DNA from: Sulfurimonadaceae bacterium
GTDB lineage: Bacteria > Campylobacterota > Campylobacteria > Campylobacterales > Sulfurimonadaceae
Length of the DNA: 64,000 nucleotides
Assembly (NCBI GenBank): GCA_041571435.1
Contig: JBFFUI010000002.1
Span: 76,266-140,265 of the forward strand
Direction of reading: 5' to 3'
Shown: positions 4,887 through 54,622 of the stretch, in pieces
Layout: each line of letters opens with the position of its first letter
Position numbering within the stretch: the stretch's first letter is position 1
Translations under genes and position numbers: made by a program
Notes under the pieces: generated by a model
Told to the model about the DNA's origin: nothing
Database searches by the model: none
What the model saw: the letters and a program-made list of their open reading frames with translations, nothing else

Positions 4887-5357
4887 TTACAGTTTTTGCA
4901 GTGTTCTACGGTGATAACGGATCGGTTCACTTAAGTTCAGACTTGCATTATCGGAAACGTACACATCGATCAGCATTGAACCGTTGGATTCAGGCGTTAG
5001 GATATTTGGTATATAGACAGCGCAATCTCCTCCTGCAGTGGCCAGTGGCCCAAAACCTATATACTGAACGGTAACATTGATATCAAATATCGGGTTTACG
5101 GCATCAGGGTAAACAGCCGTAAAACCGTTCATACAGTCTCCTCCAGAACGGTCAAACCCTGAAACCCGTAATAATGCATATTCTACAGCACTTTTGGCAA
5201 GCAGTTGTGCCTGCTCATTCACATAGACATTGGTTGTACGTTTTGCGGTCTCGGTTGTCGATGACAACATATATGATAGCAGTGTAGCGATCAGAATCAT
5301 GAAGAAGATCGCCATGATCATGGCAAAGCCATTACGTTTAGGTTGATAAGTTCGCAT
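4887..5357 (-). CDS. Minor pilin, PilX/MshP-like
   Basis: N-terminal KRNG|FAMIMAIFFMILI hydrophobic segment lacking E5, then QAQLLAKSAVEYA; last gene of the pilin cluster. Confidence 0.65.
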   Translation of the reverse strand: MRTYQPKRNGFAMIMAIFFMILIATLLSYMLSSTTETAKRTTNVYVNEQAQLLAKSAVEYALLRVSGFDRSGGDCMNGFTAVYPDAVNPIFDINVTVQYIGFGPLATAGGDCAVYIPNILTPESNGSMLIDVYVSDNASLNLSEPIRYHRRTLQKL

Positions 5358-6202: not shown

Positions 6203-6894
6203 TAAAATCTCCTCTTGGCAAAGTCAATCTCACCGATGTTACAGGTATAAGCCCGTAATCTTGCGATGACCTCATTGACACCATCTACCGTTGCGTTGAT
6301 TTCAACCTGTGTCATCTTCATATTGCTTTGCACTCCCGGTGCCCCTGCCGTAAAGACGAATGGGGTCGCAAAAGTGTCCGGTACATACTGTCTTTTTGCT
6401 GTAATAGTAAAACTTCTTTTATATCCAGCACTGTCAGCAATAGAATTACTGATATCATGAGCCAAGGTTGTCACCGCATTGTCAGGTAATGCCGGATAGT
6501 GCGAAGGATCTGTGGCATTATATTCAAAAAAGCTTCGGTGCAGATCCTCATTGAGGCCTCCAACGCGAATCGAACTGTTGACATCGGTTCGTCCATAGGT
6601 AGATCCTACTGCCCCGACATCAAGTATTTTACTTAATGACACTGCCGTAGCTGTCCCTTCCAAGGAGTTATCATCCCAAATGAGTGTCGTTGTCTCTGAC
6701 AAAACAGCCGACACCAGGAAGATCGCTTCTTGCGCGGCACTAACTTCTAGTGCTTTGTTGTTGACCTGTATCATCATCGGTATTGTCAGCATGACAACAG
6801 CAATAACGACAATGGCGAAAATAAGTTCAATCATTGTAAACGCACGTCGCATCAAACGTCGGGCGTTATTTGCTAGAGTTCGACCTCTTACCAT
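6202..6894 (-). CDS. Prepilin-type minor pilin (MshD/PilV-like)
   Basis: RRA|FTMIELIFAIVVI class III signal peptide. Confidence 0.8.
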   Translation of the reverse strand: MVRGRTLANNARRLMRRAFTMIELIFAIVVIAVVMLTIPMMIQVNNKALEVSAAQEAIFLVSAVLSETTTLIWDDNSLEGTATAVSLSKILDVGAVGSTYGRTDVNSSIRVGGLNEDLHRSFFEYNATDPSHYPALPDNAVTTLAHDISNSIADSAGYKRSFTITAKRQYVPDTFATPFVFTAGAPGVQSNMKMTQVEINATVDGVNEVIARLRAYTCNIGEIDFAKRRF

Positions 6895-9800: not shown

Positions 9801-10559
9801 TAACGTTGCTACAGAAGGGTCGATGTAACACTCACTGTTGTCACACTGGACTGATGAGAGGTTGACATCGAATGTGTCCCCCGGAGTTGTCAGGTTTGTA
9901 GGGACGTTGACCGTGATCGTCTCAGTCGTATTACATTCCGTATTAAACTGTACTGTACCCGTATCACTGAAATTAGCATCGTTGATGAACGTCACCGTAA
10001 TGTCGTTCTCATATGGACAACGTGTGATATTGACATTCAAATCGACTGTCGGCGTACCCAGTTTAATGTTTTTTGTTTCTGGGGAGATAGAGATTCTTGG
10101 AATAGTCTCCGGGACCAGTGTGACGTTCAAGTCAAAAGGCACTGCTGTCGCACTAGTGTCCGCGCCGACGAGCACATAAAGCGTATCGCCATTGATATAG
10201 ACTTCGAAGCCATAGGTCGTTGACGTGGGCAGTGTCGGTAGTGTGGTCCTGTCTGCTGCAAGTACCACATCTGCATCTGTCCCGGCATTAAAGCTTACGT
10301 AGACCAGACCTGTCTCTGTCAGGTTAAACGTATATGCTTCGTACTTGCTTTTTGTCACTGACCCGGTCAATGACGTCTGCTGTGTAGCCCCAACAAATAC
10401 CCCTGTGCTGTTAAGATCGAAAGGGCCGTTCAGGTTGACTAGGGCGGCAGCCATAAGGGCTGCAGGTGTTATCAGCGATACTGTAAAGAACAATACCATG
10501 CTTTTAAATCTGTTTATCATCTGTATCAATAAAATGAAAAATCTACTAAAAACTTCCAT
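6888..10559 (-). CDS. Large secreted adhesin, MshQ-like, with DUF11-type Ig domain
   Basis: 1223 aa, signal peptide, Thr/Ser/Asn-rich beta domains, DUF11-like DMTVVK..INYTIDVTNQG..ATDVVVWD, C-terminal FIPDHF...FVYGR...WLIYD region; overlaps first minor pilin. Confidence 0.65.
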   Translation of the reverse strand: MEVFSRFFILLIQMINRFKSMVLFFTVSLITPAALMAAALVNLNGPFDLNSTGVFVGATQQTSLTGSVTKSKYEAYTFNLTETGLVYVSFNAGTDADVVLAADRTTLPTLPTSTTYGFEVYINGDTLYVLVGADTSATAVPFDLNVTLVPETIPRISISPETKNIKLGTPTVDLNVNITRCPYENDITVTFINDANFSDTGTVQFNTECNTTETITVNVPTNLTTPGDTFDVNLSSVQCDNSECYIDPSVATLTLLSTISDMTVVKDAPKIKQVSTDINYTIDVTNQGAEAATDVVVWDIVSSSVTYIGYTAPAGWNCSYVTADRNLSCAYTGDFASGATDTITIEVTGPSTHTYVTNSAYVESSNDGDILNNISSIATEFVDTATADDLCYYDSGFDDQGSQNCTAIDSFYLGSNCTSFVSVGNQNPLKVVYYVNVKKVYTPPTTLGTCDSNADCGPFSDGTSNGYEYNATILNPFRSILATDIDTDASGVSSVSLYGSYMRDGLVFNGEIPPCSASYPSDSGAVTFGKVDVLDNFDEATYDNGAASVITTKVTEKPLAVDIVYLGENPDGAPEDFDGTPFAMILELAEIDPATGLYSKLSPLKYPDGTLVTAQIDKTSKNVVATSSTGSFTIPKASRDAKIAARYNILSSTLSAQEEQCILRASKNGNLAEISACFNSESRLEEVFINTADTCLNIWTASNGQPYGPCSSNAGNSGFPYIAPFDSEPACLSCLVGPEIQALSKDNFAVRPDRYDISSSEISYPDLLRAGKDYNITIVAYDYIDENTSSYDQSIANLDDNVTKYGSDGVIHNTLAGSTTGNLSGGGNFVNGVTVTPAVYNYNEVGHITIDLVDANWSEVDFDDTPMTCNPDGAYVCGNVDVMFIPDHFKVIVDLNNSSNGFTYLSNDANMTPHMHVQIWAENENNATTVNFTDVPLFGYEHNVTVLMTVPTPAGLPTIEHEISTAKLIGFTDGYRDLNWNESNETLAFWFNYIRQTNKPVNPFRVFGSDVIVDVNSNYTGTAPEGTANIAGTDSDDENLTFVYGRSHMPRTRAMCTGAPCAGNVTFFYEFYGDKGAADYNQTLITDLLGTSPKRSVDSVNWYRNTLHNTATDGNVTFSTQNIPDGGITPVFTHSTQTTSASYSYDGSKGFPYKGTVTVPSSLTAGTQSWLIYDKYKPDPATEIRGELEYYGPGSWSSDTGAAESVKDSSGKKNRNTNRRIRW

Positions 10560-10794
10560 TTTTTCTCCCCTTATTTAAGGTATATTGCATTTTTTCTATT
10601 GACAACTCTGCCAATTTTTCAGTATATGATATTTTATATTGGTTTACACTTAAATTTTATATATAAAAGCCTTATCATACGGAGATATTAAAAAAATATT
10701 TGCACATGTAGATAAAAATAAATATTGCTATATTTAGCTGGGGATTTAGTAGTATTTTACACAGTAGAGACTTCTACTGTGTAGGAAGAGACGA

Positions 10795-11409
10795 TTAATA
10801 TTCGCCTGTAAATTTGAAGACGATCGAACCGTATGCTTCGTACATATTGTCAATAGTGTAGGTGTCATTATCTGAGAAGACATGTTTTGCGCGCACACCA
10901 AGTTCAATACCCAGGTTGTCGATGAGATCGATGTTTGCACCCACTTGGGCACCACCATAACCGTTTTGGTTTGTTTCACTATACGTTGTTCCTGTTGAGT
11001 CATCCTCGAATGTTGAAACGATACCACCACCGTTAAGACCCATGAAAATATTGAAATGCTCACCGGCACGGATCAGGTAGTCGACCTGCAGACCCAGTGA
11101 CATCGCTGTTGATGCAGTTGTATTTGGCGCATCAAGCTGGTAGTATGTACCGGCCAGAAACAGTCTGTAGTGTTTTGACTCGCCCCCCAGTTTCACTGAC
11201 GCTGAAGCAGCAGCTGATGTCTCATCTACAGCGAGAATCGTCGTACCCGGAGTCGTCGTCGTGTCTCTATAGGAAAGGTCTGCAGAACCTGCAGCACCCT
11301 CAATCGCGATCAAACCTTTTGCATCCCACTCGTTAGCAAAATAATTTTCACCAGCACTTGCATTAACAGCCGCAAGCAAAATCGCTGAACTTAAGACTTT
11401 TTTCAACAT
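10795..11409 (-). CDS. Outer membrane beta-barrel protein
   Basis: Signal peptide, amphipathic beta strands, aromatic C-terminal strand YGSIVFKF. Confidence 0.7.
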   Translation of the reverse strand: MLKKVLSSAILLAAVNASAGENYFANEWDAKGLIAIEGAAGSADLSYRDTTTTPGTTILAVDETSAAASASVKLGGESKHYRLFLAGTYYQLDAPNTTASTAMSLGLQVDYLIRAGEHFNIFMGLNGGGIVSTFEDDSTGTTYSETNQNGYGGAQVGANIDLIDNLGIELGVRAKHVFSDNDTYTIDNMYEAYGSIVFKFTGEY

Positions 11410-24556: not shown

Positions 24557-24943
24557 TTACGACTCAAAACCATACTTTTCAAACAGCCCCAGCAGCTCCT
24601 CTGTCTCCAAAGGACCGATATGACGATAGACTTCGGTGCCGCTCTTATCATAGATGATCTGTGTCGGGATCATGCGCACCTGAAGCTGTTGCGCTACATG
24701 ACGCTCTTTTTTAACGTTGATAAAGGCTATCTGATACCTGCTGTGTTTCTGTTTGACTTTGTAAAGTAGTTTTCCCATTATGATGCAGCTGCGGCAACTG
24801 TCAGAACCTATCTCCAGAAGATATGGCTTCCCCTTGCCGATACTTGACTTAACATAGATGTACGGTGTCTCTTTGAGCATCGGTTCGTCTGCCGATACAT
24901 GCAATGCAAAGCCAACCCATAATAATAAAAGTACTCTCTTCAT
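24557..24943 (-). CDS. Exported thioredoxin-family protein
   Basis: Signal peptide, CRSC motif, cis-Pro IPT. Confidence 0.85.
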   Translation of the reverse strand: MKRVLLLLWVGFALHVSADEPMLKETPYIYVKSSIGKGKPYLLEIGSDSCRSCIIMGKLLYKVKQKHSRYQIAFINVKKERHVAQQLQVRMIPTQIIYDKSGTEVYRHIGPLETEELLGLFEKYGFES

Positions 24944-24971
24944 AACGTCTCCTTAAATAATAATTGCAATC

Positions 24972-25673
24972 TTACAACTGCAAATAGGCCTGATAGCCAA
25001 AATAGAACGCAAACCCTATCAACATCAGTGCAAAACCCCGGTTAAGGTAGGTCGATAGTCTTGCAAGGGTAGTGTTCGAGGTAAGATTCTGTGCAAAACC
25101 GACTGATACCCCTGCGCCCAAGAGCAGAAGCGAATGTCCGAATGCAAAGGTCAGGATAAGCCCGTACGCGTAGACATACCCGCTGTTTGCCGCGACGGTG
25201 ACGATGGCCACAAGCGGCGCAGAAGCGCAAGGGGTACTGACCAGACCAAAGATGATACCGATAAGGAACCCGCCGAAAAGACGGTATTTTATAAGATGCT
25301 GCATGATGGACGATTTGTCCACTTCGCCGAGCAGCCCCCAAGCATAGAGCCCGATCAAAAGGCTCATAAGTGCGGCGACTATGTAGGCCCACATCGGTGC
25401 GATGGAAAAGAAGCCGCCGAACTTAGCAACGATATACCCTAAAATAGAGAAACTCAGCATCACACCGAAGGCAAAAAGTGTGGCAAATGCATAGGTATAT
25501 AGCACACGCTTTCGGCCTTCAAGGTCCTTGTTTACTGCAACGGCACTTCCCACTAGAAGCGGCACCGAGATCAGTGAACACGGGGCCACTGCCGTAATGC
25601 TGCCGGCACCGAATGCGCCTATAAATGCCAAAACAGAGTGAGACTCAAGCAGTGCCAGTATAGTCTCTTGCAC
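24972..25673 (-). CDS. ccdA: CcdA/DsbD-type transmembrane disulfide reductase
   Basis: About 6 TM helices with APC and TPC cysteines. Confidence 0.85.
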   Translation of the reverse strand: MQETILALLESHSVLAFIGAFGAGSITAVAPCSLISVPLLVGSAVAVNKDLEGRKRVLYTYAFATLFAFGVMLSFSILGYIVAKFGGFFSIAPMWAYIVAALMSLLIGLYAWGLLGEVDKSSIMQHLIKYRLFGGFLIGIIFGLVSTPCASAPLVAIVTVAANSGYVYAYGLILTFAFGHSLLLLGAGVSVGFAQNLTSNTTLARLSTYLNRGFALMLIGFAFYFGYQAYLQL

Positions 25674-25675
25674 GT

Positions 25676-25912
25676 CTATCCGTTGATGTAGGCCAGGACT
25701 TCATCGACACTGAGCACCTTGCCGGTACTGACAACCTTGCCGTCGATCACAAGACCCGGCGTGCTTACGACCTGATACTCCATGATCTTCATGATGTCAT
25801 CCACTTTTTCAAGCTGAACAAACTTACCGCTTTTGGCGATCGCCTCTTTGACCACTTTTTCAAGTGTAATACACTTGGCACAGCCTGTACCCAATACCTC
25901 TATTTTCATCAC
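25676..25912 (-). CDS. Small redox-active disulfide protein (MTH895/thioredoxin-like)
   Basis: KIEVLGTGCAKC...STPGLVIDG. Confidence 0.9.
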   Translation of the reverse strand: MMKIEVLGTGCAKCITLEKVVKEAIAKSGKFVQLEKVDDIMKIMEYQVVSTPGLVIDGKVVSTGKVLSVDEVLAYING

Positions 25913-26172
25913 TTATCCTCATCTGTTTTTAAAAGACACTCTTGCATCATCGGTGCGATCGTATCGGCATCAATGTCCCCTGAAACGGTGATATTTGTCT
26001 CATTCGCACTGCCGCTGACCTCGATCTTATCGATCTTTTTCATCATCTCGGGATCACAGGCACATTCGCATGTTCCCTCTTGGCACGCTTCGATCTTGGC
26101 GCTGATATCCTCTTTCTTGAAGCCCGTCAGCGTCGCAGTGACACCTTTTTTTGTGTTGTTGATTGTAAACAT
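25909..26172 (-). CDS. Small Cys-rich hypothetical protein
   Basis: 87 aa, CQEGTCECAC cluster; overlaps the downstream ars-operon gene. Confidence 0.7.
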   Translation of the reverse strand: MFTINNTKKGVTATLTGFKKEDISAKIEACQEGTCECACDPEMMKKIDKIEVSGSANETNITVSGDIDADTIAPMMQECLLKTDEDK

Positions 26173-26182
26173 TGTTCTTCCT

Positions 26183-27127
26183 TTATAATATAAGATTAAA
26201 GAGATAGCCGATCGCTATGATCCCGCTACCGACGATCGCGAAAAAGACCCCGATCAACTTGAGCGAGATCACCTTTTTCAGGATCAGCGCCTCGGGAAGG
26301 CTCAATGCCGTCACCGCCATCATAAAACTCAGGGCCGTCCCGAGCAGCATCCCTTTGGACGTCAACACCTCCACAAGGGGCATGACACCGGCTGCGTTTG
26401 AGTACATCGGAATACCCATGATCACCGCGATGATGACGGCGAACGGGTTGCCCTCGCCTGTATACTGTGCGATAAAATTGGTCGGGATATAGCCATGTAT
26501 CCACGCACCGACACCGACACCGAGCACTACGTAGAGGTAGATCTTTTTAAAGATGTCAAACGAGTAATCCCATGCCTCTTTGACACGTGCTTTGAAACTC
26601 AGTTTGACCAACCCTGCCTGCAGCTTCTCGTCGATCGGTTTGACATCGAGTACTATCTCTTTTTCCATCTGCAATTTGCCGATAAGCATCCCGCCAAAGA
26701 TAGCGACAGTGAGTCCAAAGCCGATATAGATGGCCGTCACTTTCCACCCGAACAGCCCGAACAGCATCGCGATCGCGATCTCATTGTTCATCGGCGCTGA
26801 GATAAGGTAACTGAAGGTAACGCCAAGCGGAATCCTTGCCTGTATAAACCCTAAAAAGAGCGGTATAGCACTGCAGGAACAAAACGGGGTGATGATCCCG
26901 AAAAGCGATGCACCGACATGGCCGTAAAACGCCGACTTTCCCTGAAGGTGGGCGCGCACATACTCGGTGTTGAACCAGGTACGCAAAAAAGAGACGGCGA
27001 AGATAATGGTAATGAGCAGAAACCAGATCTTGACCGTGTCGTAGATAAAAAAGTGCAGGGCATCGCCAAGTTGACCTTCCAGCCCCAATACACCGTTGAC
27101 AAATCGTCCGCTTAGCTCATGCCACAT
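26183..27127 (-). CDS. arsP: ArsP-type (DUF318) permease
   Basis: ITPFCSCSAIP, GIPMYSN, ALSLPE motifs; in ars operon. Confidence 0.85.
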   Translation of the reverse strand: MWHELSGRFVNGVLGLEGQLGDALHFFIYDTVKIWFLLITIIFAVSFLRTWFNTEYVRAHLQGKSAFYGHVGASLFGIITPFCSCSAIPLFLGFIQARIPLGVTFSYLISAPMNNEIAIAMLFGLFGWKVTAIYIGFGLTVAIFGGMLIGKLQMEKEIVLDVKPIDEKLQAGLVKLSFKARVKEAWDYSFDIFKKIYLYVVLGVGVGAWIHGYIPTNFIAQYTGEGNPFAVIIAVIMGIPMYSNAAGVMPLVEVLTSKGMLLGTALSFMMAVTALSLPEALILKKVISLKLIGVFFAIVGSGIIAIGYLFNLIL

Positions 27128-27143
27128 CTTGACCCCGTTTCAA

Positions 27144-27557
27144 TTATTTTGAGCAGAGCTCTGCTTTGACGATCGGCAGAAGCTCCGCCTCGATAAGGTT
27201 CAAGGTCTTTTCATACTCCTCGACCGCTTTACCGCTCGGGTCATCAAACCCGACATGGATCGTCTTGACCGCTTTTGGAAAAACGGGACAGGTCTCTTTG
27301 GCATGGTCGCACACCGTGACAATAAGGTCGAACGGTGTATCCAGGACCGTCTCGATCACCTTGGAATGATAATCTTCCCGCCAATACCCTTTTGATTCCA
27401 ATAGCGCCTGGGCATTGGGGTTCACCTTTCCGCTCGCTTTCACACCCGAGCTCTGTGCTTCGACGCAGTCACCCAGCTTCGCATTGATAAGGGCTTCTCC
27501 CATGATCGAGCGGCAACTGTTCCCTGTACACAGGATTAAAACGTTTTTTTTCTTCAT
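27144..27557 (-). CDS. arsC: Thioredoxin-coupled arsenate reductase
   Basis: CTGNSCRS P-loop, TVCD...CPVFP, FDDP; ATGA overlap with arsR. Confidence 0.9.
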   Translation of the reverse strand: MKKKNVLILCTGNSCRSIMGEALINAKLGDCVEAQSSGVKASGKVNPNAQALLESKGYWREDYHSKVIETVLDTPFDLIVTVCDHAKETCPVFPKAVKTIHVGFDDPSGKAVEEYEKTLNLIEAELLPIVKAELCSK

Positions 27558-27877
27558 ACTTTGCACCCTTCTGTTTCTGACATTTTTTTCAGCGGCGGCA
27601 GATCGATACCGAGGTGTTTGATCTCTTCCAACGCTTCACGTCTGAAGCGATCAAGGGGAGTGCGTATCGAGTAATACGCCCATGTCCCTCTACGTTCGAC
27701 ACGCAGGAATCCCGCCTCTTTCAAGATCTTCAGATGACGCGACAGACGCGACTGGATCATGCCCAGGGACGCCTGCATGTCGCAAACACACAAACTGCCG
27801 TGTTTGTCTATAAAACGCAAGAGTAACACACGGGTCTCGTCATTGAGCGCCGAAATACTTTTTAAAAAGATATCCAT
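27554..27877 (-). CDS. arsR: ArsR/SmtB family repressor (start ATG 27877)
   Basis: LCVCD metal-binding box, QSRLSRHLKIL HTH; AAGGAG RBS upstream. Confidence 0.92.
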   Translation of the reverse strand: MDIFLKSISALNDETRVLLLRFIDKHGSLCVCDMQASLGMIQSRLSRHLKILKEAGFLRVERRGTWAYYSIRTPLDRFRREALEEIKHLGIDLPPLKKMSETEGCKV

Positions 27878-27914
27878 CTGCCTCTCCTTGTAAATAAAAG
27901 TATACCGGATTATA

Positions 27915-27946
27915 ATCATTATATCAAGATAGGTTGATATAATGAT
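27915..27946. promoter_or_regulatory. Probable ArsR operator
   Basis: Perfect 13-bp inverted repeat ATCATTATATCAA-gatagg-TTGATATAATGAT directly upstream of arsR. Confidence 0.75.
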
Positions 27947-28025
27947 CTTATTTCTCAAAACCGTTAGGTAAAAGCCTCTTATTAAAATAAGATTATAATA
28001 GGCATCTATGCAAAAAGAGGCTGCT

Positions 28026-28475
28026 ATGTATAAACACTTATTACTACTTATATTTATCGCTACGGTTGGAAGCGCCGACACAAAACAGATCTCCTATGAC
28101 AACTACCTCACTTCATTTACCTATGAAGAGCGCAAAGCGATGAAGATCAACAGTGTTGAACTGACGGTAATGCTGGAAGAAGGAGAAGCGCAACTGGTTG
28201 ACATCCGTTTTAAAGAGGAGTTTGAGGCCTGGCATATGAAAGGGGCTCTCAACATCCCTCTGAACGAGCTTCCAAAGCGTCTCAACGAACTCGACAGAAC
28301 GAAAGTGATCGTCACGGCGTGTCCACACAAAGACCGGGCCATCATGGCACGCACTTTCCTAAAGCTCAAAGGCTTTGAGACACGCTACCTCGTGGATGGG
28401 CTAATAGGGCTTGCCGACTATTGGCGCGGCGATAGTGCCAGAGAGTTTATCGATGAGCTGCACAAGGTAAAATAG
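28026..28475 (+). CDS. Exported rhodanese-like protein
   Basis: Signal peptide, LVDIR..EF...H, active-site ACPHKDRA; AAGAGG RBS before ATG 28026. Confidence 0.88.
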   Translation: MYKHLLLLIFIATVGSADTKQISYDNYLTSFTYEERKAMKINSVELTVMLEEGEAQLVDIRFKEEFEAWHMKGALNIPLNELPKRLNELDRTKVIVTACPHKDRAIMARTFLKLKGFETRYLVDGLIGLADYWRGDSAREFIDELHKVK

Positions 28476-46522: not shown

Positions 46523-46538
46523 TCACCTATATGGGTGA
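46523..46538. promoter_or_regulatory. Palindromic operator TCACC-N6-GGTGA
   Basis: TCACC TATATG GGTGA just upstream of TATAAT (46561); related copies at 49996 and 54003. Confidence 0.55.
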
Positions 46539-46602: not shown

Positions 46603-48423
46603 ATGTTGATGGCAATACGGAACAAACGTAAAGCAATTGGTTTAAGTCTCATTGTAACACTGGGGCTTGCTTCTGCATTGAACGCAGGTATTATTACAAC
46701 GCAGCAACAAGCTGCACCGAGTGTAGCACCTGGATTTAATGGTTTGAATCTGGATAACGTCGATGTGTTGATGACGGATGACTTGTTTGATCCGGCAGGG
46801 TTTTCCGGAACAGGTGATTTCAATAAAACGGATGGCTCTTACCCGACAATGACCTATGGCGACTCTTTTGAGAGCCAGGTAAAAGATGACAGCGGTACAG
46901 TCATGGTAAAACTTCACGGCAAGACCTGGCCTGTAGGCGAACCGCTGGGTATAAAAGTCATTACCGATTCGCCGGGCGACCCTCAAAACGGAAAACCGGA
47001 CAACTGTATTATGACGACCTCTTATCTGGATACAGGCTACCTGGATACAGACAGTCCTAATCCAACCAACTGTAACAGTCCATTCCAGACCCACAAACGT
47101 TTCAAAGCCAACCTGCAGCAAACGCTTGTTGACGGTGCGGGCGTTGAGAGCTTTGATCTTGTCTTCAATGTCGCACCCGAAGCGGATCCGGCAGTGCGCC
47201 GTTACCAGCTCTTTCAAAAGATCAACAACTACACGCAAGAGCGACTCTCGGGCTATAACGTTGAAGTCGGTTTCGGTGTCGGTGCAAACTTTACGCGTGC
47301 CGATTCAGCTGACATTACCCTTTCGATCGGTGAAGGCGAAAATGCAGGAGATGACATCTGGGCAGAAGCGGAACGCGCGACCTTTGCACACGGTCTTTGG
47401 GGACCGGTAGATAAGCACTTCCCGGTGCCTGGTTTCTTCAGCCAATACTCTGCAGGTTTTGAAGTCGCACTTGACGGTGACCAGAAAGGGGCGACTTCCG
47501 GACCTTCACTGGACGTAAACTATAATAGCAACTATCTAACACTGTTCGGCGAATGGCTGCCGAGAAAATGGGCACCGACTGGTATTTTCCACGATTTTGA
47601 CGATGATCCGACAACAGATGCGGATATCGTAGCATTTTGGGCAGACGTTGATGGTGACGGCACCTACGCCTGGACCTATGGCGGACCAAATTTCAACCTG
47701 GTCGACAACGCCACCCTTGAGTCATGGGCGGCAGACCGTCTGTACAGTGTCGGACTCATCGAAGATGTCCTTAACCTGGGTCTGAACTACATCATCAATA
47801 TCGGTGATGTTACGACATTCGATGACTTCAACGCCACCAGTGAGACAGCGACATTTACGATTCGTATCACACCGGTCAAAGGAACGACCGGAACGGAACC
47901 GGGCTGGATCACAAATCCGCCGATTCTCGGTACGGCGGGAAGCCTGGGTGCCGTTTCAATCGGGGCCGATCCGTTTGCACCGGGTGATGTATTGACCATT
48001 ATTGTCACGGATGGCGATCTCAACGAAGACAACACGACCATTGAAACTGTAGAGATCAATGTGACAAATACGCTCGGTGAGACAGAGCTCGTGACGTTGA
48101 CAGAGATCGCGCAGACATCGGGGTACTTCAGAGGTACACTCGCTACCAACGATTCAGACGTGGCAGGTACAGATAACGACGGTATTCTGAACGTAACGAA
48201 TGGTTCACTGGTGACAGCGACCTATAACGATGCCGATGACGGTACTGGAAGCCCTGCTGTTGTAACGGACACGGCACTGGCACAAACACCGGTTACGCCA
48301 CCGCCAAGTAACAACGATACAGCTGATGGCTTTTCAACGATGGATAACGTCAGTCTTTTCGCAATGATCTTCGGATTCCTTGCCATAGGCGGTTTCATCG
48401 CACGTAAACGACTCGCCAAGTAA
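46603..48423 (+). CDS. Surface protein, choice-of-anchor F-like, with C-terminal TM/basic sorting tail
   Basis: Signal peptide; WPVGEPLGIK, NCIMTTSYL, CNSPFQTHKRFK; Pro/Thr linker then GFSTMDNVSL + TM helix + RKRLAK. Confidence 0.75.
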   Translation: MLMAIRNKRKAIGLSLIVTLGLASALNAGIITTQQQAAPSVAPGFNGLNLDNVDVLMTDDLFDPAGFSGTGDFNKTDGSYPTMTYGDSFESQVKDDSGTVMVKLHGKTWPVGEPLGIKVITDSPGDPQNGKPDNCIMTTSYLDTGYLDTDSPNPTNCNSPFQTHKRFKANLQQTLVDGAGVESFDLVFNVAPEADPAVRRYQLFQKINNYTQERLSGYNVEVGFGVGANFTRADSADITLSIGEGENAGDDIWAEAERATFAHGLWGPVDKHFPVPGFFSQYSAGFEVALDGDQKGATSGPSLDVNYNSNYLTLFGEWLPRKWAPTGIFHDFDDDPTTDADIVAFWADVDGDGTYAWTYGGPNFNLVDNATLESWAADRLYSVGLIEDVLNLGLNYIINIGDVTTFDDFNATSETATFTIRITPVKGTTGTEPGWITNPPILGTAGSLGAVSIGADPFAPGDVLTIIVTDGDLNEDNTTIETVEINVTNTLGETELVTLTEIAQTSGYFRGTLATNDSDVAGTDNDGILNVTNGSLVTATYNDADDGTGSPAVVTDTALAQTPVTPPPSNNDTADGFSTMDNVSLFAMIFGFLAIGGFIARKRLAK

Positions 48424-48437
48424 ACCCGGTATTGGCA

Positions 48438-48466
48438 TCATGCCCAGGTAGTTCATCTGGGCATGA
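48438..48466 (+). terminator. Hairpin after surface protein gene
   Basis: TCATGCCCAG-gtagttcat-CTGGGCATGA. Confidence 0.55.
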
Positions 48467-48573
48467 CTATACACCTCATCTCTTTCCAACCCCTCTTTTT
48501 CCCGCTTATACTTATACATCGCTAACGCTCTTCGCCTATAATTTTATTATCTGAATAATACAAAGGTTATAAG

Positions 48574-49146
48574 ATGAAAACAAATACAAATCAACGTAGA
48601 GATTTTTTGAGACTATTGGGTCTCGGTGCCATTGCAACGGCTTCGACAGCATTTGCAAGTGGTGGTGGCCGTAACAAACAAACGGTTGAATTGACTGAAG
48701 AACAGAAAGATACACTTTTCTTCATCTTCCAGGAAGAGAAAGTGGCAAGGGATGTTTATATCACCTTGGGCGAGCTCTATCCGGAGGAGTCAACATTTGC
48801 CAATATCCAGCTTTCAGAGCAGGAGCATATTTTGTCGGCACAGGTCCTGTGTGAACGTTACGGCATCGATACCTCAAGCGTCAACCTCTCGCTGGAGGAG
48901 GAGTATGTGGGGCAGTTTGAACTGCTGGCGATGCAAGAGCTTTATAACAACTGTATCGGCCTCGGTTCCGTCTCACTGCTCGAAGCACTTAAAGTCGGCG
49001 AGTTGATCGAGCTGACCGATATTGACGATCTTGAAGAGGCTGCCGAGGGGATGCCGTCGGATGTTGTCAAAGTCTACGACAACTTGAAAGCAGGAAGCCT
49101 GAACCATTTGGATGCATTTCAAACAGCGATCGCCAGAGAGTCATAA
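48574..49146 (+). CDS. Tat-exported ferritin-like protein (DUF2202)
   Basis: QRRDFLR twin-arginine signal; EEKVARDVY, SEQEH, GSLNHLDAF. Confidence 0.85.
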   Translation: MKTNTNQRRDFLRLLGLGAIATASTAFASGGGRNKQTVELTEEQKDTLFFIFQEEKVARDVYITLGELYPEESTFANIQLSEQEHILSAQVLCERYGIDTSSVNLSLEEEYVGQFELLAMQELYNNCIGLGSVSLLEALKVGELIELTDIDDLEEAAEGMPSDVVKVYDNLKAGSLNHLDAFQTAIARES

Positions 49147-49175
49147 ACGGTACATAATAAAACGAGGAGAAGACC

Positions 49176-49598
49176 ATGAACATGCTAATGATCAACACCC
49201 CTGTGAAAAAGAAGCTGACACTCGCTCTCCTCGCCTACTACGAGACACTTAAACGAGGGGATCTGCAGGCACAGTCTACTCTGATGACAAAAGAGTCCTA
49301 TCTCCTTACCTTGGAAGCTGTGGGGTTTAAACGCGCATTCAAAGATCCCGAATTCAAAGCCCTTCTAAAAAAAATCAGCGATGATGAAAAGGCACTGCAC
49401 ACAGTTGAGACAATACTCTCAAATGATTTGGCTGCCGAAGCAAGAGAACATGACATAGCACTTCTCTCATTTGATCCGAAAGGGTCAGACCGCATGACCG
49501 TCCGTTACACGGAAGACGGGCACCCTAAAAAACTCTACTTCTCATCGCTCTCCGGAGAGTGGAAGATCGACTATAAAGCCGGCCGGCGAAAAATATAA
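49176..49598 (+). CDS. Hypothetical protein (possible NTF2-like fold)
   Basis: 140-aa ORF with GAGGAG RBS. Confidence 0.7.
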   Translation: MNMLMINTPVKKKLTLALLAYYETLKRGDLQAQSTLMTKESYLLTLEAVGFKRAFKDPEFKALLKKISDDEKALHTVETILSNDLAAEAREHDIALLSFDPKGSDRMTVRYTEDGHPKKLYFSSLSGEWKIDYKAGRRKI

Positions 49599-49603
49599 CG
49601 ACC

Positions 49604-49903
49604 CTATTTAAGGGTTAAGATATGCTGCGCCAACGCCGCGGCATCATCCGCATCCACACCTTTTAATTTCGCCTGGTGCATACCTAGGTAGCGTGACGAG
49701 ACTTTGCTCGTTCCATCCAGAAACGCCCGGATGCTTGTCGTCATCTGCTCTTCACTTAGCGTGTTAAGCTTGGGTGAGGTCTTCAAAGCGATCTTTTCCC
49801 CCTTCTTGCCGTGACACATCGCACACTTTTTATAGATAGATGCGCCATCGAAAGCGGAGAGTGCCAATGCACCCAGGGTCAGCAACAAAACAATCTTTTT
49901 CAT
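49604..49903 (-). CDS. Periplasmic monoheme cytochrome c
   Basis: Signal peptide, CAMCHG, distal Met (GMH). Confidence 0.9.
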   Translation of the reverse strand: MKKIVLLLTLGALALSAFDGASIYKKCAMCHGKKGEKIALKTSPKLNTLSEEQMTTSIRAFLDGTSKVSSRYLGMHQAKLKGVDADDAAALAQHILTLK

Positions 49904-50066
49904 CTTTTCCTCTCTATTCTCTCTCTTTTACGCTATTTTAAAACAGACTTGCTTAAAATGGATGTTAATCAAATCTCTTCAAAATCATTAAAAAATCACC
50001 CCTTGGTAGGATGCATTTTTTGTTTTTTTTGACTACTCAAATGTATCTTAATAAAAAGGAGTCTTT

Positions 50067-51428
50067 GTGAAGCAGCTACATCGTTTTGCCTTGTTTTCAT
50101 GCTGTCTGCTCTTATTTGGCTTTTTGGAAAACGCACAGGCTGTTCCCGGTTTTGCACGACAGACCGGGTTAGAGTGTATGATGTGTCATACCCAAAACCA
50201 GACCAAACTGAACCGTTTTGGACGCGAGTTCGCCCGTTCAGCCTATACCATGAGCTCGGAGTCCGGTGCACAGTCGCTTATCGACGGCGAAGCACTTGGC
50301 CTCAGTATTCCCTCGGTGCTTAACATGTCCTTGATGTTAAAAGGACGGATCGAAAAAAGTGACGGGGCCATCAACGGAAAAGGCAATGTCCTTGAATCAA
50401 AAGTTGACGGCGAGAAGATCGACAGCAACCGCGGAATCTATGAGTTCTTCAAAACCTCGACCATCAATGTTGCCGGGCGCGTCGCCAACAATGTCGGTAC
50501 GATCATCGAATTTAGAGAGAAAGAGGGCAAAGCGATCTTCGGCGGAAAGATCGCAACCGCTTTTGAAACAGGCAGCGGCTATAGCGGTCTAGCCGTCTAT
50601 TCCACAAACAACTATGGTCCGTTCAGCGGAATCGAAAGTTACAATACCGGTCTCTACAAGCCCTTGCGCCAGTTCGAAAATCACAAATTGACCAACGCTG
50701 CCCAGGCATCCGATCTTGGAAGCGGACCGGCCACCGGTCTGCAGCTTTACTATGGAGGCGAAAATCTCTTTGTGACACTCGGTGCCTATGTGCCGATACA
50801 TAACAATGACGGCATCGACATTGGCGACAGCATGATCCCTTTTGCCCGAATAGCGTATGAGCAGCCTCTCGGTGATTTGACGCTTACTGTAGGGGCTTTC
50901 GGTATCAGCGGTACTGCTACAGCCAGCAATACCACATTTTATCCTGCACTCTCGGGTCTGATCCCCGATGCGCTTGTCGGGGTAAAAAAAGAGGCCTACG
51001 GTTTTGACCTGCAGCTCGAAGGTGTCATCTTGGATATCGAGACATTGATGACCTTTGTTGCTGTACCGAAAAACAAAACAACGCTGAGTGATGCCTCCTT
51101 GATGGTCTATGAGACAAAACCACTCTCTGACTCAGTCTATGGTGAACCGGAAGACGCTGAGACGGCAGCCTACTCTGTCGATCTCTCCATCCACCCATGG
51201 CCGTCGCTTGGCTTTAAAGTGGCCTACTTGACCGCCGACGACAGCGGCCCACACACCTATGAACTCGACAAGATCGACGTCAAGGACAAGGACGCCGTCA
51301 CACTCGGGTTTGACTATTCATTCCGTCAAAACGTATTGCTGACCATGGAGTACTCGATGGTCAATGCAAAAAAAGAGGAGATCGAAAACTATAACGATCT
51401 CTTAACTGTTCTAACGATCTCATTTTAA
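50067..51428 (+). CDS. Cyc2-like cytochrome c-porin fusion (copy 1)
   Basis: AVPGFARQTGLECMMCH...LNRFGREF..SAY N-terminus, beta-barrel C-terminus ending in Phe. Confidence 0.85.
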   Translation: MKQLHRFALFSCCLLLFGFLENAQAVPGFARQTGLECMMCHTQNQTKLNRFGREFARSAYTMSSESGAQSLIDGEALGLSIPSVLNMSLMLKGRIEKSDGAINGKGNVLESKVDGEKIDSNRGIYEFFKTSTINVAGRVANNVGTIIEFREKEGKAIFGGKIATAFETGSGYSGLAVYSTNNYGPFSGIESYNTGLYKPLRQFENHKLTNAAQASDLGSGPATGLQLYYGGENLFVTLGAYVPIHNNDGIDIGDSMIPFARIAYEQPLGDLTLTVGAFGISGTATASNTTFYPALSGLIPDALVGVKKEAYGFDLQLEGVILDIETLMTFVAVPKNKTTLSDASLMVYETKPLSDSVYGEPEDAETAAYSVDLSIHPWPSLGFKVAYLTADDSGPHTYELDKIDVKDKDAVTLGFDYSFRQNVLLTMEYSMVNAKKEEIENYNDLLTVLTISF

Positions 51429-51437
51429 ATGGAGTGT

Positions 51438-52712
51438 ATGATGAAAAAAATGACTAAAAACGTACTATTGTTCTCAACAGTCTTACTGCTGACCGTGGCA
51501 GAGTCCGCTTATGCTCAACCCGGATTTTCACGCCAGACGGGTAAAGAGTGCAGCGCATGTCACGTCCAGAACATGCCGAAACTCAACAGCTACGGTCGCC
51601 ACTTTGCCCGTTCAGGCTATACGCTTTATGACACCGAAAATGAGCTGCAGTCTGCAATAGAGGGCTCAGACATGCCGTTGAGCCTGCCAGGCGTCTTGAA
51701 TGCTTCGGCTGTCTTGAAAGCGCGCTACAGCAAAGTCGAATCGGTGCGTGGCGAGGTCAATGTCCTCAATGGTACAGGCCTCTACTTCGGTGGACGGTTT
51801 GCCGAAAATGTGGGTGGTCTTGTTGCATTGACTGGTGATCCGTCTGAAGATCGCGATGTTGTTTTTGGGGCAAAGATGATACTCTCTTTTGCGTCGCTCA
51901 ACGGCTATAGCGGTCTTTCGCTCTACTCAACACAGACGAACGGGATCTTCACGGGTATGGAGAACTATAACACCGGTCTCTACGCACCGCTGAAACAATT
52001 TGAGTTCGCAAACGTCACCAATGCCGCACAGGCGACTGCCCTTGGCCGCGGTCCGGCAACCGGTATTCAAGCCTATTACGGTGATGATCATTTTCTGATG
52101 ACCCTTGGAGCGGCTATTCCGTCACAGAACAGTGAGGGGATCGATGCCGGCGGCAGTCTTCTTCCTTTCGGACGTATCGCCTATAATCAGCCGATAGGCG
52201 GGTGGGACCTTATGCTCGGTGCATACGGTTTTTCCGGTGATGTCAAAGCAAGCAATCTAAGTCTTGACGGTGGTGCAATTGACCGCAGTGGCGAACTTGT
52301 GACTGTGCATAAAGAAGGGTATGGTCTGGACTTTGAAGCCTCAGGGTCGATCGCCGATATGATGACCATGACGACGATCAACGTCGTACTCAAAAACAGT
52401 GTTTCAACAGACCTCAATGTCAGCAGCGACAGCCTACAGCAGACCGACAATCAGGGCGCATCGATTGAGTTCCAAATCAACCCTGTTACACCGTTTGGCA
52501 TCAAGCTCGCTTATCTGACCTACAAAAGCAATGATACAAAAGAGGGATTGGAATTTGTCCGTTCCTATGACTTTGATGCCCCTTCAGTCGGGATAAACTA
52601 CCTTTTCCGTCAAAACATCAATATCGATCTTCAATACACATACAACGATATAAGAGCCGAAGAGATGGCCGATTTTTACGAGCTGTACCTCTCTGCTGTC
52701 ATAGCCTTTTAG
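51438..52712 (+). CDS. Cyc2-like cytochrome c-porin fusion (copy 2)
   Basis: AQPGFSRQTGKECSACH...PKLNSYGRHF..SGY; barrel ending AVIAF. Confidence 0.85.
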   Translation: MMKKMTKNVLLFSTVLLLTVAESAYAQPGFSRQTGKECSACHVQNMPKLNSYGRHFARSGYTLYDTENELQSAIEGSDMPLSLPGVLNASAVLKARYSKVESVRGEVNVLNGTGLYFGGRFAENVGGLVALTGDPSEDRDVVFGAKMILSFASLNGYSGLSLYSTQTNGIFTGMENYNTGLYAPLKQFEFANVTNAAQATALGRGPATGIQAYYGDDHFLMTLGAAIPSQNSEGIDAGGSLLPFGRIAYNQPIGGWDLMLGAYGFSGDVKASNLSLDGGAIDRSGELVTVHKEGYGLDFEASGSIADMMTMTTINVVLKNSVSTDLNVSSDSLQQTDNQGASIEFQINPVTPFGIKLAYLTYKSNDTKEGLEFVRSYDFDAPSVGINYLFRQNINIDLQYTYNDIRAEEMADFYELYLSAVIAF

Positions 52713-52800
52713 TGCCGTTGGGAGCGGGTTTCCCTTCTGCTAACACACCGCTTACACTCCCTGTGTTATAATATTTACAACTTCACAAAAAGGGTTAAAA

Positions 52801-53133
52801 ATGAACAAGCTTCTATTTACAGTCTCAGCAGGACTGCTTCTTACTATTGGTGCACAAGGTGCAGAGCAGACCCCTACTAAACTGCAGCAAAAAACCATGA
52901 CACAGCAAAAAACAGGTAATGGCGGCGGTGGTCAAGGTAAAAAGCAGATCAAACACCTATACAAATATCAAAACCAATACAAATACCAGGGTACAAATGG
53001 TCAAGGTAGTGGACAAGGTGCAGGCAGTGGGACAGCCCAAGGCGGCGGTAAGGGCCAGGGTTACGGCAAAGGCCAGGGAGGCGGAAAGTCGGCTAACGCA
53101 GGTGGCGGTGGCGGTAGCGGCAAAGGCCGTTAA
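52801..53133 (+). CDS. Small secreted Gly/Gln-rich protein
   Basis: Signal peptide, YKYQNQYKYQ, GQG/GGG repeats; TGTTATAAT promoter upstream. Confidence 0.75.
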   Translation: MNKLLFTVSAGLLLTIGAQGAEQTPTKLQQKTMTQQKTGNGGGGQGKKQIKHLYKYQNQYKYQGTNGQGSGQGAGSGTAQGGGKGQGYGKGQGGGKSANAGGGGGSGKGR

Positions 53134-53137
53134 CCAA

Positions 53138-53173
53138 ACATCTTCAGTCAGAGATATTCCTGACTGAAGATGT
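53138..53173. terminator. Bidirectional hairpin between convergent genes
   Basis: Perfect 14-bp stem ACATCTTCAGTCAG / CTGACTGAAGATGT. Confidence 0.7.
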
Positions 53174-53181
53174 CCCACTGT

Positions 53182-53952
53182 TTAATGGATGACCGTTAGT
53201 TTATTATGCAGTTCTATTTTGGAACAGACGCCATACTTTCTGAATATATTTTTCATATGTGTTTTAACCGTATTGAGAGAGATATTCAGCTCTTGCGCAA
53301 TCTCTTTATGTGACTTCCCCTGCAGAACACGCTGTGTAACCTCTTTCTCTTTTCCCGTCAACCGTTTCATCATATTATCGATCTGGACACATCTTACACG
53401 GAGGATATGTCTGTCGTCATCGTAGAGAAGGCGGGTAAGAAGCTCAAATATCTCGGTCAGATGCGAAATGTCCCCGGTCTTATTCTTGCTCCCTGTAAAG
53501 AGGTAGATGATCAAACCGATCCGTCTGCCGGCCTTGTTTCGTATCGGCGTTAATAGTGCATGATCAAACCCCAGCTCCTTTTCAAACTCGGCCGTTTTTT
53601 TCTTTGAGAGGTGGCCATCAAAAAGATTATGAAGACTTTCGACCTTGACCTGGGTTTGTGACGCTGTAAAATGCGAGTTGCATTGCTGAAGAAACCTATC
53701 GAGCTCCAGATGTTTGGCCGAAAGTTTATACTTGCTTAACAGAGAGAGGAACTTGAACTTCTCTTCCAGGATCAGTTCAATATCGGCCCCACCTTCATTC
53801 TCAAGACAGACGGCAATAACATTGGCTCCGCTCTCTTCCAAAAAGAACTGGGTCTCTTGACGCAAAATTGTTTTGAGACTATACCCTTCGATAATAGCGG
53901 ATTGCAGAGAGATGATTTTTTGCAGAAGTGCGGTATCAGTGATCGTCATCAT
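53182..53952 (-). CDS. LuxR/GerE-type HTH regulator with N-terminal GAF-like sensor
   Basis: LTGKEKEV..GKSHKEIAQELNISLNTVKTHMKNIFRK; no receiver Asp motif in the N-terminus. Confidence 0.88.
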   Translation of the reverse strand: MMTITDTALLQKIISLQSAIIEGYSLKTILRQETQFFLEESGANVIAVCLENEGGADIELILEEKFKFLSLLSKYKLSAKHLELDRFLQQCNSHFTASQTQVKVESLHNLFDGHLSKKKTAEFEKELGFDHALLTPIRNKAGRRIGLIIYLFTGSKNKTGDISHLTEIFELLTRLLYDDDRHILRVRCVQIDNMMKRLTGKEKEVTQRVLQGKSHKEIAQELNISLNTVKTHMKNIFRKYGVCSKIELHNKLTVIH

Positions 53953-54079
53953 AAATACTTTCTTGAGATTAGTTCCTATATCATAACTGTTTCAGCCCAA
54001 TATAACCCTAAAAGGTGATAATATAGGTACTCATTCTGCCAGGTTCTTTTACCCTGTAAGAAGGAAGGAGCGTCTCTGT

Positions 54080-54622
54080 ATGCTGTGGTTTGTACTGCGT
54101 TATGCTATCTGGTCTCTGCTGCTTTTCGCACTTATCTTTTTTGAGACGTACTCGCCGTTTTACTTCATCAACGGGCTTCAGACCGATGCCACCATCTATA
54201 TCACCGGGCTCTGGATAACGTTCATGGATATTCCTGTCACGCTTTCCGGCAACAGCCTCATCTTCGAACACGGCATGCATCTTTTGATCCTGAATGAGTG
54301 CAATGGTCTCACACCCTTGCTGCTCTATCTCGCGGCCATTCTTGCCTATCCGACTCGCTACCGTATCAAGATCAAATGGTTTTTTGGCGGCATGATCGTG
54401 TTATTGACACTCAACATGGTGCGCATCGTCCTGATCACACTGCTCGTCATCGACTACCCTGACAGTTTTGAGTTTGCACACAATTTTGTCGGCCGCTACA
54501 CCATCGGCGTTGTAACGCTCTACCTGTTTTACTTCTTTACCACACACGTCACCACATGTACCCCTTACGGTATTATCCTCAATGGAAAAAACTGCCACAG
54601 CAAGCCTTCTATGAAAAAATAG
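54080..54622 (+). CDS. Exosortase/archaeosortase family protein (short, XrtH-like)
   Basis: Multi-TM; ECNG (Cys), NMVR (Arg), FAHN (His) triad. Confidence 0.88.
   Translation: MLWFVLRYAIWSLLLFALIFFETYSPFYFINGLQTDATIYITGLWITFMDIPVTLSGNSLIFEHGMHLLILNECNGLTPLLLYLAAILAYPTRYRIKIKWFFGGMIVLLTLNMVRIVLITLLVIDYPDSFEFAHNFVGRYTIGVVTLYLFYFFTTHVTTCTPYGIILNGKNCHSKPSMKK

Follow-up and report, generated by a model that had tools for sequence, protein, structure and literature searches.

A conserved tandem pair of Cyc2-like fused cytochrome-porins with a divergent cytochrome c in Sulfurimonadaceae

Cyc2 proteins are recognized by a signal peptide, a single CxxCH heme site, the upstream motif AXPXFAR[Q/K][T/Y], a PXL motif 4 residues downstream, a length of at least 365 amino acids (aa) and a 16-strand porin (Keffer et al. 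2021, PMC8406198), the PXL motif being described there as common in Cyc2 yet not unique to it. The validated Cyc2s oxidize Fe(II) in vitro (PMC8406198; PMC13692758). Those of cluster 1, such as Cyc2PV-1 of Mariprofundus ferrooxydans and Cyc2TAG1_1 of Ghiorsea bivora, are described as proteins of ~390–450 aa with a signal peptide, an N-terminal CxxCH after A-x-P-x-F-A-R-Q-T and a 16-strand barrel resembling OprO/OprP (PMC8406198; PMC13692758). The same fused design is reported for Acidithiobacillus ferrooxidans Cyc2 (cluster 2) and Leptospirillum Cyt572 (cluster 3), to which an Fe(II) oxidase role is assigned (PMC7029218, PMC8406198). We analyzed a 64,000-nucleotide stretch of a Sulfurimonadaceae genome (assembly GCA_041571435.1, contig JBFFUI010000002.1; hereafter the window), in which two adjacent genes, A and B, encode proteins of this architecture next to a divergently oriented gene for a small cytochrome c (positions 49604–52712).

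A (50067–51428) and B (51429–52712) lie in tandem on the forward strand and encode proteins of 453 and 427 aa that are 39% identical over 460 columns (E 3e-101), far above chance. Each protein has one CxxCH, at residue 37 in A (CMMCH) and at residue 41 in B (CSACH), and each ends in Phe. Translation of the open reading frames gives AVPGFARQTGLECMMCH...KLNRFGREFARSAY, ESYNTGLYKPLRQFE, GSGPATG and the C-terminus TISF for A, and AQPGFSRQTGKECSACH...KLNSYGRHFARSGY, ENYNTGLYAPLKQFE, GRGPATG and the C-terminus VIAF for B. Signal peptides with a basic n-region and a hydrophobic core, read by eye, are predicted to end between MKQLHRFALFSCCLLLFGFLENAQA and VP in A (AQA/V) and between KKMTKNVLLFSTVLLLTVAESAYA and QP in B (AYA/Q). 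The sequence-only reading had described two adjacent paralogs with these features, and the reading frames bear it out. A starts with GTG, with AGGAG upstream. For B, the ATG at 51441 is more likely the start than 51429: it follows GGAG (51431–51434) by 6 nt and the stop codon of A by 12 nt, and the gap between the two genes is 12–17 nt at more distant orthologous loci. With a spacing of only 0–12 nt, A and B are almost certainly co-transcribed.

The third gene (49604–49903, reverse strand) is separated from A by 163 bp and encodes a 99-aa protein with a signal peptide and a single CxxCH (CAMCH at residue 27). It matched Pfam PF00034 (E 5e-8, 34.6 bits, cutoff 21.3), and its nearest relative in the PDB was cytochrome c553 2dvh (E 1.5e-5; c553 chains ranged from E 1.5e-5 to 4e-4). 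With one CxxCH near the N-terminus, ~80 mature residues and this profile match, it is a monoheme class I cytochrome c of the c553-like type, which agrees with the divergent CAMCH cytochrome noted from the sequence; the Met in YLGMHQ is a candidate distal ligand.

A and B each agree with the published description of Cyc2 in all points but one. Both exceed the minimal length, and A carries the upstream motif exactly (AVPGFARQT, three residues, then the Cys); this three-residue gap was found in every relative inspected, where the paper gives "5 amino acids upstream" (PMC8406198). B keeps the Pro of PXL (CSACH VQNM PKL), as do 9 of the 11 rows of the B clade in the tree described below. The Cys and His residues of CxxCH, Q32, G52, R53 and F55 are invariant in all 50 sequences of the A alignment, indicating that the heme site is under selection, and CxxCH with its flanking residues is also unchanged across all 46 sequences of a further alignment and across the 72 full-length locus proteins listed with the motif.

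AlphaFold2 modeled both proteins as beta-barrels, with a mean pLDDT (score predicted for the local distance difference test) of 80.8 and a predicted TM-score (pTM) of 0.81 for A (alignment of 50 relatives), and 83.7 and 0.82 for B (alignment of 46 relatives), in line with the barrel that had been proposed for each paralog. The signal segments form N-terminal helices, and all-beta structure runs from residue ~84 of A and ~90 of B to the C-terminus. Each model has 17 strand elements, two short ones making up one broken strand, which is compatible with 16 strands. A Foldseek search of the PDB with the A model returned 287 matches at E ≤ 0.001, and the top matches were all porins. The highest listed TM-scores were those of OprO (4rjw, TMq 0.51) and OprP (2o4v, 0.49), with E values of ~1e-8 to 1e-9; both are reported as templates for Cyc2 by Keffer et al. 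(PMC8406198). General porins (PorB, OmpT and OmpF) were also among the matches. Between two strands, residues 181–221 of A (YNTGLYKPLRQFE, GSGPATG) form a long segment, modeled with very high confidence and strongly conserved, that is probably an inward-folding loop. In the ESM Atlas the clusters closest to A had no names, and one at 0.98, which we treat as a lead only, has Porin_O_P on 20% of its members.

To place the pair among its relatives, we built a family profile from 50 members and ran it against 1.84 billion representatives, of which 3865 matched at E ≤ 0.001 and 228 at E ≤ 1e-30. After the closest, Campylobacterota-type proteins, the next tier consists of proteins of 400–450 aa that align end to end and carry A-x-A-V-P-A-F-A-R-Q-T-G-x-x-C-x-x-C-H-F-Q-x-F-P-x-L-N-x-F-G-R, exactly the published consensus. 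Of 148 inspected relatives (those listed after the first two), an N-terminal CxxCH is present in 141, while the remaining 7 are fragments or lack it; the commonest upstream word is FARQT (70), followed by FARQM (20) and FARQV (15). With hhalign, the family aligned to 32 proteins of the consensus tier at 100% probability (E 2.4e-93, 408 columns) and to a more distant group of the PSFARQTGLSC type at 99.9% (E 5.8e-31, 383 columns), so the homology spans both cytochrome and barrel. This distant family has more than 5037 members; its proteins (~445–470 aa, C-terminus W..F), annotated as "cytochrome C" in Gemmatimonadales, Calditrichia and Burkholderiales metagenome-assembled genomes (MAGs), have the same architecture as A and B but are far more remote from A (phmmer E 1e-8 to 1e-4, mostly N-terminal) and differ in barrel sequence and C-terminal motif.

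Homolog searches with A, the PSFARQTGLSC group and the consensus tier returned no protein of a named iron oxidizer; the names were those of MAGs only (Sulfurimonas, Nitrospirae, Deltaproteobacteria, Gemmatimonadales, Calditrichia and Burkholderiales). Against plasmids, tblastn with A gave one weak N-terminal match, to a Ralstonia solanacearum megaplasmid (30% of the query, E 6e-4), which is uninformative, and a full-text literature search for the motif letters gave only noise from optical character recognition.

Several observations speak against so direct an assignment. No Pfam or NCBIfam family matched A or B at E ≤ 0.1, and searching the PDB by sequence gave no match at E ≤ 10. B departs from the upstream motif with a Ser for the Ala (AQPGFSRQT, thus FSRQT and not FARQT), and a strict screen for PXFAR[Q/K][T/Y], as published (PMC8406198), would exclude it; the FSRQT/FSRQM variant is common, occurring in 13 of the 148 listed relatives and 5 of the 12 A-clade rows. 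At the PXL position A has Thr in place of Pro (CMMCH TQNQ TKL), and 11 of the 12 A-clade rows lack the Pro, which is kept only in L006 (and P0033); 8 A-clade rows have CMMCH. The single-copy relatives stray further from the consensus (FGKQT, FATQT). No Met or His beyond the CxxCH His, and hence no candidate sixth heme ligand, is common to the four groups compared, and the first 60 mature residues, which include the heme site, are of low confidence in both models, as expected for a heme-free model.

On balance, we regard it as very probable, from the published criteria and the homology, that A and B belong to the Cyc2 family in its broad, motif-defined sense, as distinct from membership of clusters 1–3. 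The Cyc2 identity given in the sequence-only reading therefore stands for fused monoheme cytochrome-porins with these motifs, this fold and full-length profile homology, with FSRQT in B and TKL in A as deviations. The systematic differences between A and B at the heme fit, but do not show, different heme environments.

The novelty implied in the sequence-only reading was overstated, as Campylobacterota Cyc2 homologs are already in print (PMC12442345, PMC12261689). The first of these papers places Epsilonproteobacteria Cyc2 sequences among the zetaproteobacterial cluster 1, and the second reports a FeGenie cluster-2 cyc2 call in one Campylobacterota MAG; these sequences may belong to the A/B clade or to the PSFARQTGLSC type. 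Cyc2 is reported absent from another Sulfurimonas (PMC10066037). We take A and B to form a new sub-clade within a known family, and it is their genomic context that is newly described. A literature search, which covered the choice-of-anchor proteins only superficially, found no description of the tandem pair, of the dyad presented below or of a link to choice-of-anchor proteins and DUF2202.

Compared by description with the cluster 1 proteins, A is without the Pro of PXL and B carries Ser within FAR, and the genes occur here as tandem paralogs. The Campylobacterota clade has a specific conserved internal loop (YNTGLYxPLxQFE...GPATG), and the neighbors differ, being a c553-like cytochrome, a LuxR-type regulator, a DUF2202 protein and a choice-of-anchor protein. 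The cluster 2 and 3 proteins are proteins of acidophiles, unlike A and B. OprP and OprO, the phosphate and pyrophosphate porins of Pseudomonas aeruginosa, share the 16-strand barrel with A but have no cytochrome domain, ~10% identity and no match at the sequence level. MtoAB, PioAB and MtrCAB likewise provide an outer-membrane route for electrons between metals and the periplasm, but are described as a separate 26-strand porin with a decaheme cytochrome (PMC8406198). None of them is present in this cluster: A and B have one heme site per protein and 16 strands, and no multiheme gene was found within 44–58 kb.

We then analyzed how the pair is distributed. Scanning one genome per species with a 10-row alignment and the pattern QTG[LKV][ESD]Cx[AMG]CH gave 76 loci (cited below by L numbers); with this narrow pattern, no Zetaproteobacteria, Gallionellaceae or Acidithiobacillus were among them. 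A tree of 91 rows, including 42 of the 76 loci and 20 of 32 and 8 of 12 rows of two outgroup alignments, was computed with a quick IQ-TREE search under LG+G4, with the Shimodaira–Hasegawa-like approximate likelihood ratio test (SH-aLRT) as the only support and one long-branch warning (L060). The A clade (12 rows) and the B clade (11 rows) each had an SH-aLRT of 100 and were joined, along with two unnamed representatives, at a support of 82. Their sister (99) is a single-copy clade of Sulfurovum, Sulfuricurvum and one Sulfurospirillaceae MAG (13 rows, support 100), and the Campylobacterota-type group as a whole is sister to the consensus tier (support 100).

The order cytochrome (reverse strand), A, B is conserved in 10 loci of the Sulfurimonadaceae type (L001–L009 and L011), with ortholog identities of 54–90% for A and 48–90% for B; in the nearest genome, a Sulfurimonadaceae MAG (L001), A and B are each 90% identical. 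Since A and B form separate supported clades and the tandem is conserved in these 10 loci, the duplication is old and both copies have been kept. In a Sulfurimonas MAG (L010:4965–5585), the A ortholog is open for 206 aa only, and no B ortholog was detected downstream. Among the single-copy relatives, a 473-aa protein of a Sulfurospirillaceae MAG (P0062) is a diheme variant: behind the first heme site it has an insert of ~40 residues that contains another CxxCH (NCTNCH). Other Campylobacterales and Sulfurimonadaceae (L043, L052, L054, L056, L058 and L059) encode a PSFARQTGLSC-type Cyc2-like protein of 435–452 aa with the C-terminus W..F. Because these proteins group with the large distant family, there are at least two separate lineages of Cyc2-like genes in the phylum. 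A distant Cyc2-like protein of 460 aa (AVPSFARQTGVSCAACH) was also found in the cable bacterium Candidatus Electronema sp. (L062).

It had been suggested that the two copies could form hetero-oligomers. Predicted as a complex, mature A and B scored 0.57 (median of three runs), while the best of 3 controls scored 0.00; at least 87% of contacts agreed between runs, and the partner pLDDT was at least 78. In the calibration, 116 of the 157 solved complexes passed the mark, as did 2 of the 215 mismatched pairs; these counts hold only roughly here, as the A+B prediction used its own alignments. Scores that pass at 0.60 or below were given by only 18 of the 157 solved complexes, yet by both of the passing mismatched pairs. 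Because solved structures include many porin oligomers, the pass may stem from resemblance to them, and the score does not separate mixed from homo-oligomers. The result lends weak support to an A–B hetero-oligomer.

The genes around the pair were compared in the window and 22 related loci (L001–L022). The c553-like cytochrome was found in 15 of the 22, divergent from A in all 11 tandem-type loci (L001–L011) and present also in L017, L020, L021 and L022. Its retention in 10 of 10 complete tandem loci fits a periplasmic partner of the porins. Upstream in the window, a gene at 46603–48423 (forward strand) encodes a 606-aa surface protein of the choice-of-anchor F family (NCBIfam NF033657, E 1.4e-63, 215 bits, cutoff 50) without CxxCH, with a C-terminal hydrophobic helix and basic tail as sorting signal. 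A choice-of-anchor F or O gene stands beside the Cyc2-like gene or genes in the window and 13 of the 22 loci, with family F in the window, L001, L002, L008, L012, L014, L017, L018 and L020 and family O in L006, L009, L013, L016 and L021; L015 and L022 are too short to judge.

A small exosortase-family protein (54080–54622, forward strand, 180 aa; TIGR04178, E 1.5e-14, 54 bits, cutoff 23) is presumably the sorting enzyme for the choice-of-anchor F protein. The exosortase is present in the window, L001, L002, L008, L012 and L014, and in Sulfurovum it is replaced by the JDVT-CTERM protease MrtJ (L017, 7892–8326; L018, 3253–3681; L020, 8191–8622). From these gene contents, the anchor system is swapped between lineages while the neighborhood is kept.

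The gene at 48574–49146 (forward strand) encodes a 190-aa ferritin-like DUF2202 protein (Pfam PF09968, E 8e-30) with a twin-arginine motif (RRDFLR) for export by the twin-arginine translocation (Tat) pathway; the match to the TAT region (E 7e-4) is under the cutoff, and the four-helix protein MJ0754 (3q4o) matched in the PDB at E 1.1e-19. A preprint describes DUF2202 as ferritin-like and names it as one of the genes of ferrosome clusters, which serve iron storage (bioRxiv 10.1101/2020.01.10.902569). The gene occurs in 9 of the 22 loci (L001, L003, L004, L005, L007, L011, L017, L020 and L022). It is adjoined by a gene for a conserved 140-aa protein (49176–49598, forward strand), with orthologs beside DUF2202 in L001, L003, L004, L005, L007, L011 and L017, which gave no Pfam, NCBIfam or PDB match (best PDB E 0.025, to a designed helix bundle). 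That one module combines a ferritin-like protein exported by Tat with a surface protein anchored by a sortase points to metal handling at the cell surface.

Downstream of B lie a gene for a small secreted, low-complexity protein rich in Gly, Gln and Lys (52801–53133, forward strand, 110 aa, no Pfam or NCBIfam family), with weak, compositional matches after B in L001, L002, L003, L005 and L008, and a gene for a LuxR/GerE-type transcription factor (53182–53952, reverse strand, 256 aa; PF00196, E 1.3e-15, residues 197–248). A regulator of this type is encoded in 13 of the 22 loci. The N-terminal 185 residues of the window's protein matched no Pfam family; the ESM Atlas gave, as a lead only, Autoind_bind in 25% and GAF in 41% of cluster members (score 0.94, 156 shared features).

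Aligning the intergenic regions between the cytochrome gene and A revealed a dyad, TCAC(A/C)(C/T)-N4-6-(G/A)(G/T)GTGA, ~21–23 nt upstream of TATAAT. In the window, a perfect 16-bp dyad (TCACCTATATGGGTGA, 46523–46538) precedes the choice-of-anchor F gene by ~80 bp and a TATAAT by ~23 nt; it is the only exact match to TCACMY-N4-6-RKGTGA in the 64 kb, where 0.17 were expected and 17 of 100 shuffles reached 1. A degenerate dyad (TCACCCCTTGGTAGGATGC, 49996–50014) is found in the 163-bp region, 71 bp before the A start, and a dyad-like site (TAACCCTAAAAGGTGA, 54003–54018), with one half-site mismatch to the core and weak alone, lies between the LuxR and exosortase genes. Both are unconvincing singly, the background of the loose pattern being 0.3 per 200 nt.

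Across the 76 loci, the exact dyad occurred 19 times in 14 loci, all within L001–L022 and none in the other 54. By position, 13 of the 19 precede the first Cyc2-like gene and 4 precede a choice-of-anchor F gene; the remaining two lie ahead of a choice-of-anchor O gene in L006 and of a LuxR gene in L011. When up to 2 mismatches were allowed, 11 of 12 tandem-type sequences (the window, L001–L004 and L006–L011, not L005) had a dyad between −48 and −96 relative to the first Cyc2-like gene. With its center near −41, the dyad would fit a dimeric activator of the GerE type, and it is a candidate operator of the cluster's LuxR-type regulator. In L011, the exact dyad (10177–10192) lies between tandem LuxR-type paralogs (9324–10124 and 10200–10997), suggesting autoregulation there. 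Scans of 48400–54200 for sigma-70 promoters and for terminators found no excess over shuffles (5 vs 6.6 and 5 vs 5.6, respectively). In the window, a TATAAT before the Gly-rich gene (52741–52775) is preceded by TAACAC...GTGTTA half-sites with a spacer longer than that of the cluster dyad.

Taken with the homology to Cyc2, these features suggest a mechanism in which A and B, as anciently duplicated fused monoheme cytochrome c/16-strand porins of the outer membrane expressed from one operon, would each hold a heme at or within the periplasmic opening of a narrow barrel. The donor, a small redox-active species in solution and most probably Fe2+, would enter the pore and give up an electron to the heme, from which the electron would pass to the soluble c553-like cytochrome and on to the respiratory chain of the cell, and the genes would belong to a conserved, probably LuxR-activated module. 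We give a probability of about 0.5 to this reading, in which the periplasmic cytochrome pool exchanges electrons with a small metal species dissolved in the pore, by homology Fe2+. Fe2+ would be the likeliest substrate because every tested member of the family oxidizes Fe(II) and because a periplasmic ferritin-like protein co-occurs. On the other side, the host groups are known as sulfur and hydrogen oxidizers, and nothing else specific to iron or respiration was found in the window. Cyc2 is also reported in groups of sulfur and hydrogen oxidizers without demonstrated iron oxidation (PMC12442345).

The same proteins could instead serve a surface metal-handling or protective module, in which the heme-porins would oxidize or sense reduced species (Fe2+ or sulfur species) for detoxification, uptake control or signaling while the ferritin-like protein sequesters metal. 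The recurrence of the Tat-exported DUF2202 protein (9 of 22 loci) fits such a role, as do a dedicated regulator of the ligand type where a global respiratory regulator might serve, the SO_0444-family Cu/Zn efflux and DsbD-like genes adjoining the cluster in L012 and L016, and the published breadth of Cyc2 homologs in organisms not known for growth on iron (PMC8406198, PMC12442345). However, two paralogs and a dedicated soluble cytochrome conserved over a long divergence (down to 54% for A and 48% for B) suggest a pathway that carries flux, and the conserved core has no sensor kinase or uptake transporter; we consider this reading possible, if somewhat doubtful. Electrons might also flow in the opposite direction, from a periplasmic cytochrome pool fed by sulfide or thiosulfate to an oxidized metal species, soluble or colloidal, such as complexes of Mn(III)/Mn(IV) or Fe(III) on the cell surface, with the anchored protein holding the mineral or complex. 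An A ortholog, 64% identical, is named as coming from Candidatus Sulfurimonas marisnigri (P0028), the only named isolate among 90 matches, about a quarter of the proteins being named; this isolate is reported to oxidize sulfide with manganese oxide (PMC9122950), and a Cyc2 potential as low as −130 mV has been measured, so the family is not limited to high potentials (PMC13692758). The regular association with an anchored surface protein, seen in the window and 13 of 22 loci, would also suit export. Yet a single heme in a narrow 16-strand pore cannot reach a solid (PMC8406198), the validated family members are all Fe(II) oxidases, the cluster contains no multiheme cytochrome, and the evidence for S. 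marisnigri covers the A ortholog alone; we consider export unlikely.

Alternatively, A and B might be diffusion porins of the ordinary kind, their N-terminal heme motif a relic that has no redox function; the fold matches to general porins (PorB, OmpT and OmpF) would agree with this. The invariance of CxxCH and its flanks in all the sets given above (50/50, 46/46 and all 72) and the co-conservation of a dedicated cytochrome c stand against it, and we hold it to be highly improbable. The metal- or redox-gated pore offered as an alternative in the sequence-only reading found no specific support. Returning to electron exchange with metals, a wider version can be imagined in which the Cyc2-like pair would be the membrane core of a ligand-regulated surface redox module of sulfur-oxidizing Campylobacterota, made up of the porin-cytochromes, the c553, the ferritin-like protein, the sortase-anchored choice-of-anchor F/O protein and a LuxR-solo with its own operator. 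Such a module would exchange electrons with extracellular metals, either in manganese oxide reduction of the S. marisnigri type or in electron uptake from Fe(II), minerals or steel. In it, A and B would be tuned to potentials that differ and might form mixed oligomers; this is a speculative extension that we think improbable as a whole.

Many redox interfaces are dominated by Sulfurimonas, Sulfuricurvum and Sulfurovum, which are regarded as oxidizers of sulfur and hydrogen. A conserved, separately regulated Cyc2-type module would add a metal redox chemistry to their repertoire, be it Fe(II) oxidation or electron export to Mn or Fe oxidants, and, if true, would bear on the use of cyc2 as a marker of iron oxidation in metagenomes, on manganese-dependent sulfide oxidation and on corrosion. 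The tandem pair, one copy of which systematically lacks the heme-stabilizing proline, would offer a natural experiment on heme tuning in Cyc2; the pairing with choice-of-anchor F/O would give a first functional context to these uncharacterized surface proteins, and the dyad defines a testable regulon.

Other genes were observed near the Cyc2-like clusters or elsewhere in the window. In Sulfuricurvum, the genes adjoining the cluster are a trio encoding a DsbD-like protein, a pentapeptide-repeat protein and an SO_0444-type Cu/Zn efflux protein (L012:3993–6122 and L016:9043–11172). Two Sulfurimonas loci have a gene for a GGDEF diguanylate cyclase immediately upstream of that for the cytochrome (L006:3188–4009 and L007:3680–4510). 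On the reverse strand of the window, positions 24557–28081 hold genes for thioredoxin-like, DsbD-like, SaoE/SO_0444-type Cu/Zn efflux, ArsC and ArsR proteins. Finally, positions 4887–10559 of the same strand hold a run of pseudopilin-like genes (GspK-like, E 1.3e-6, with a prepilin N-terminal domain), followed by a gene for a 1223-aa protein and others without an NCBIfam match.

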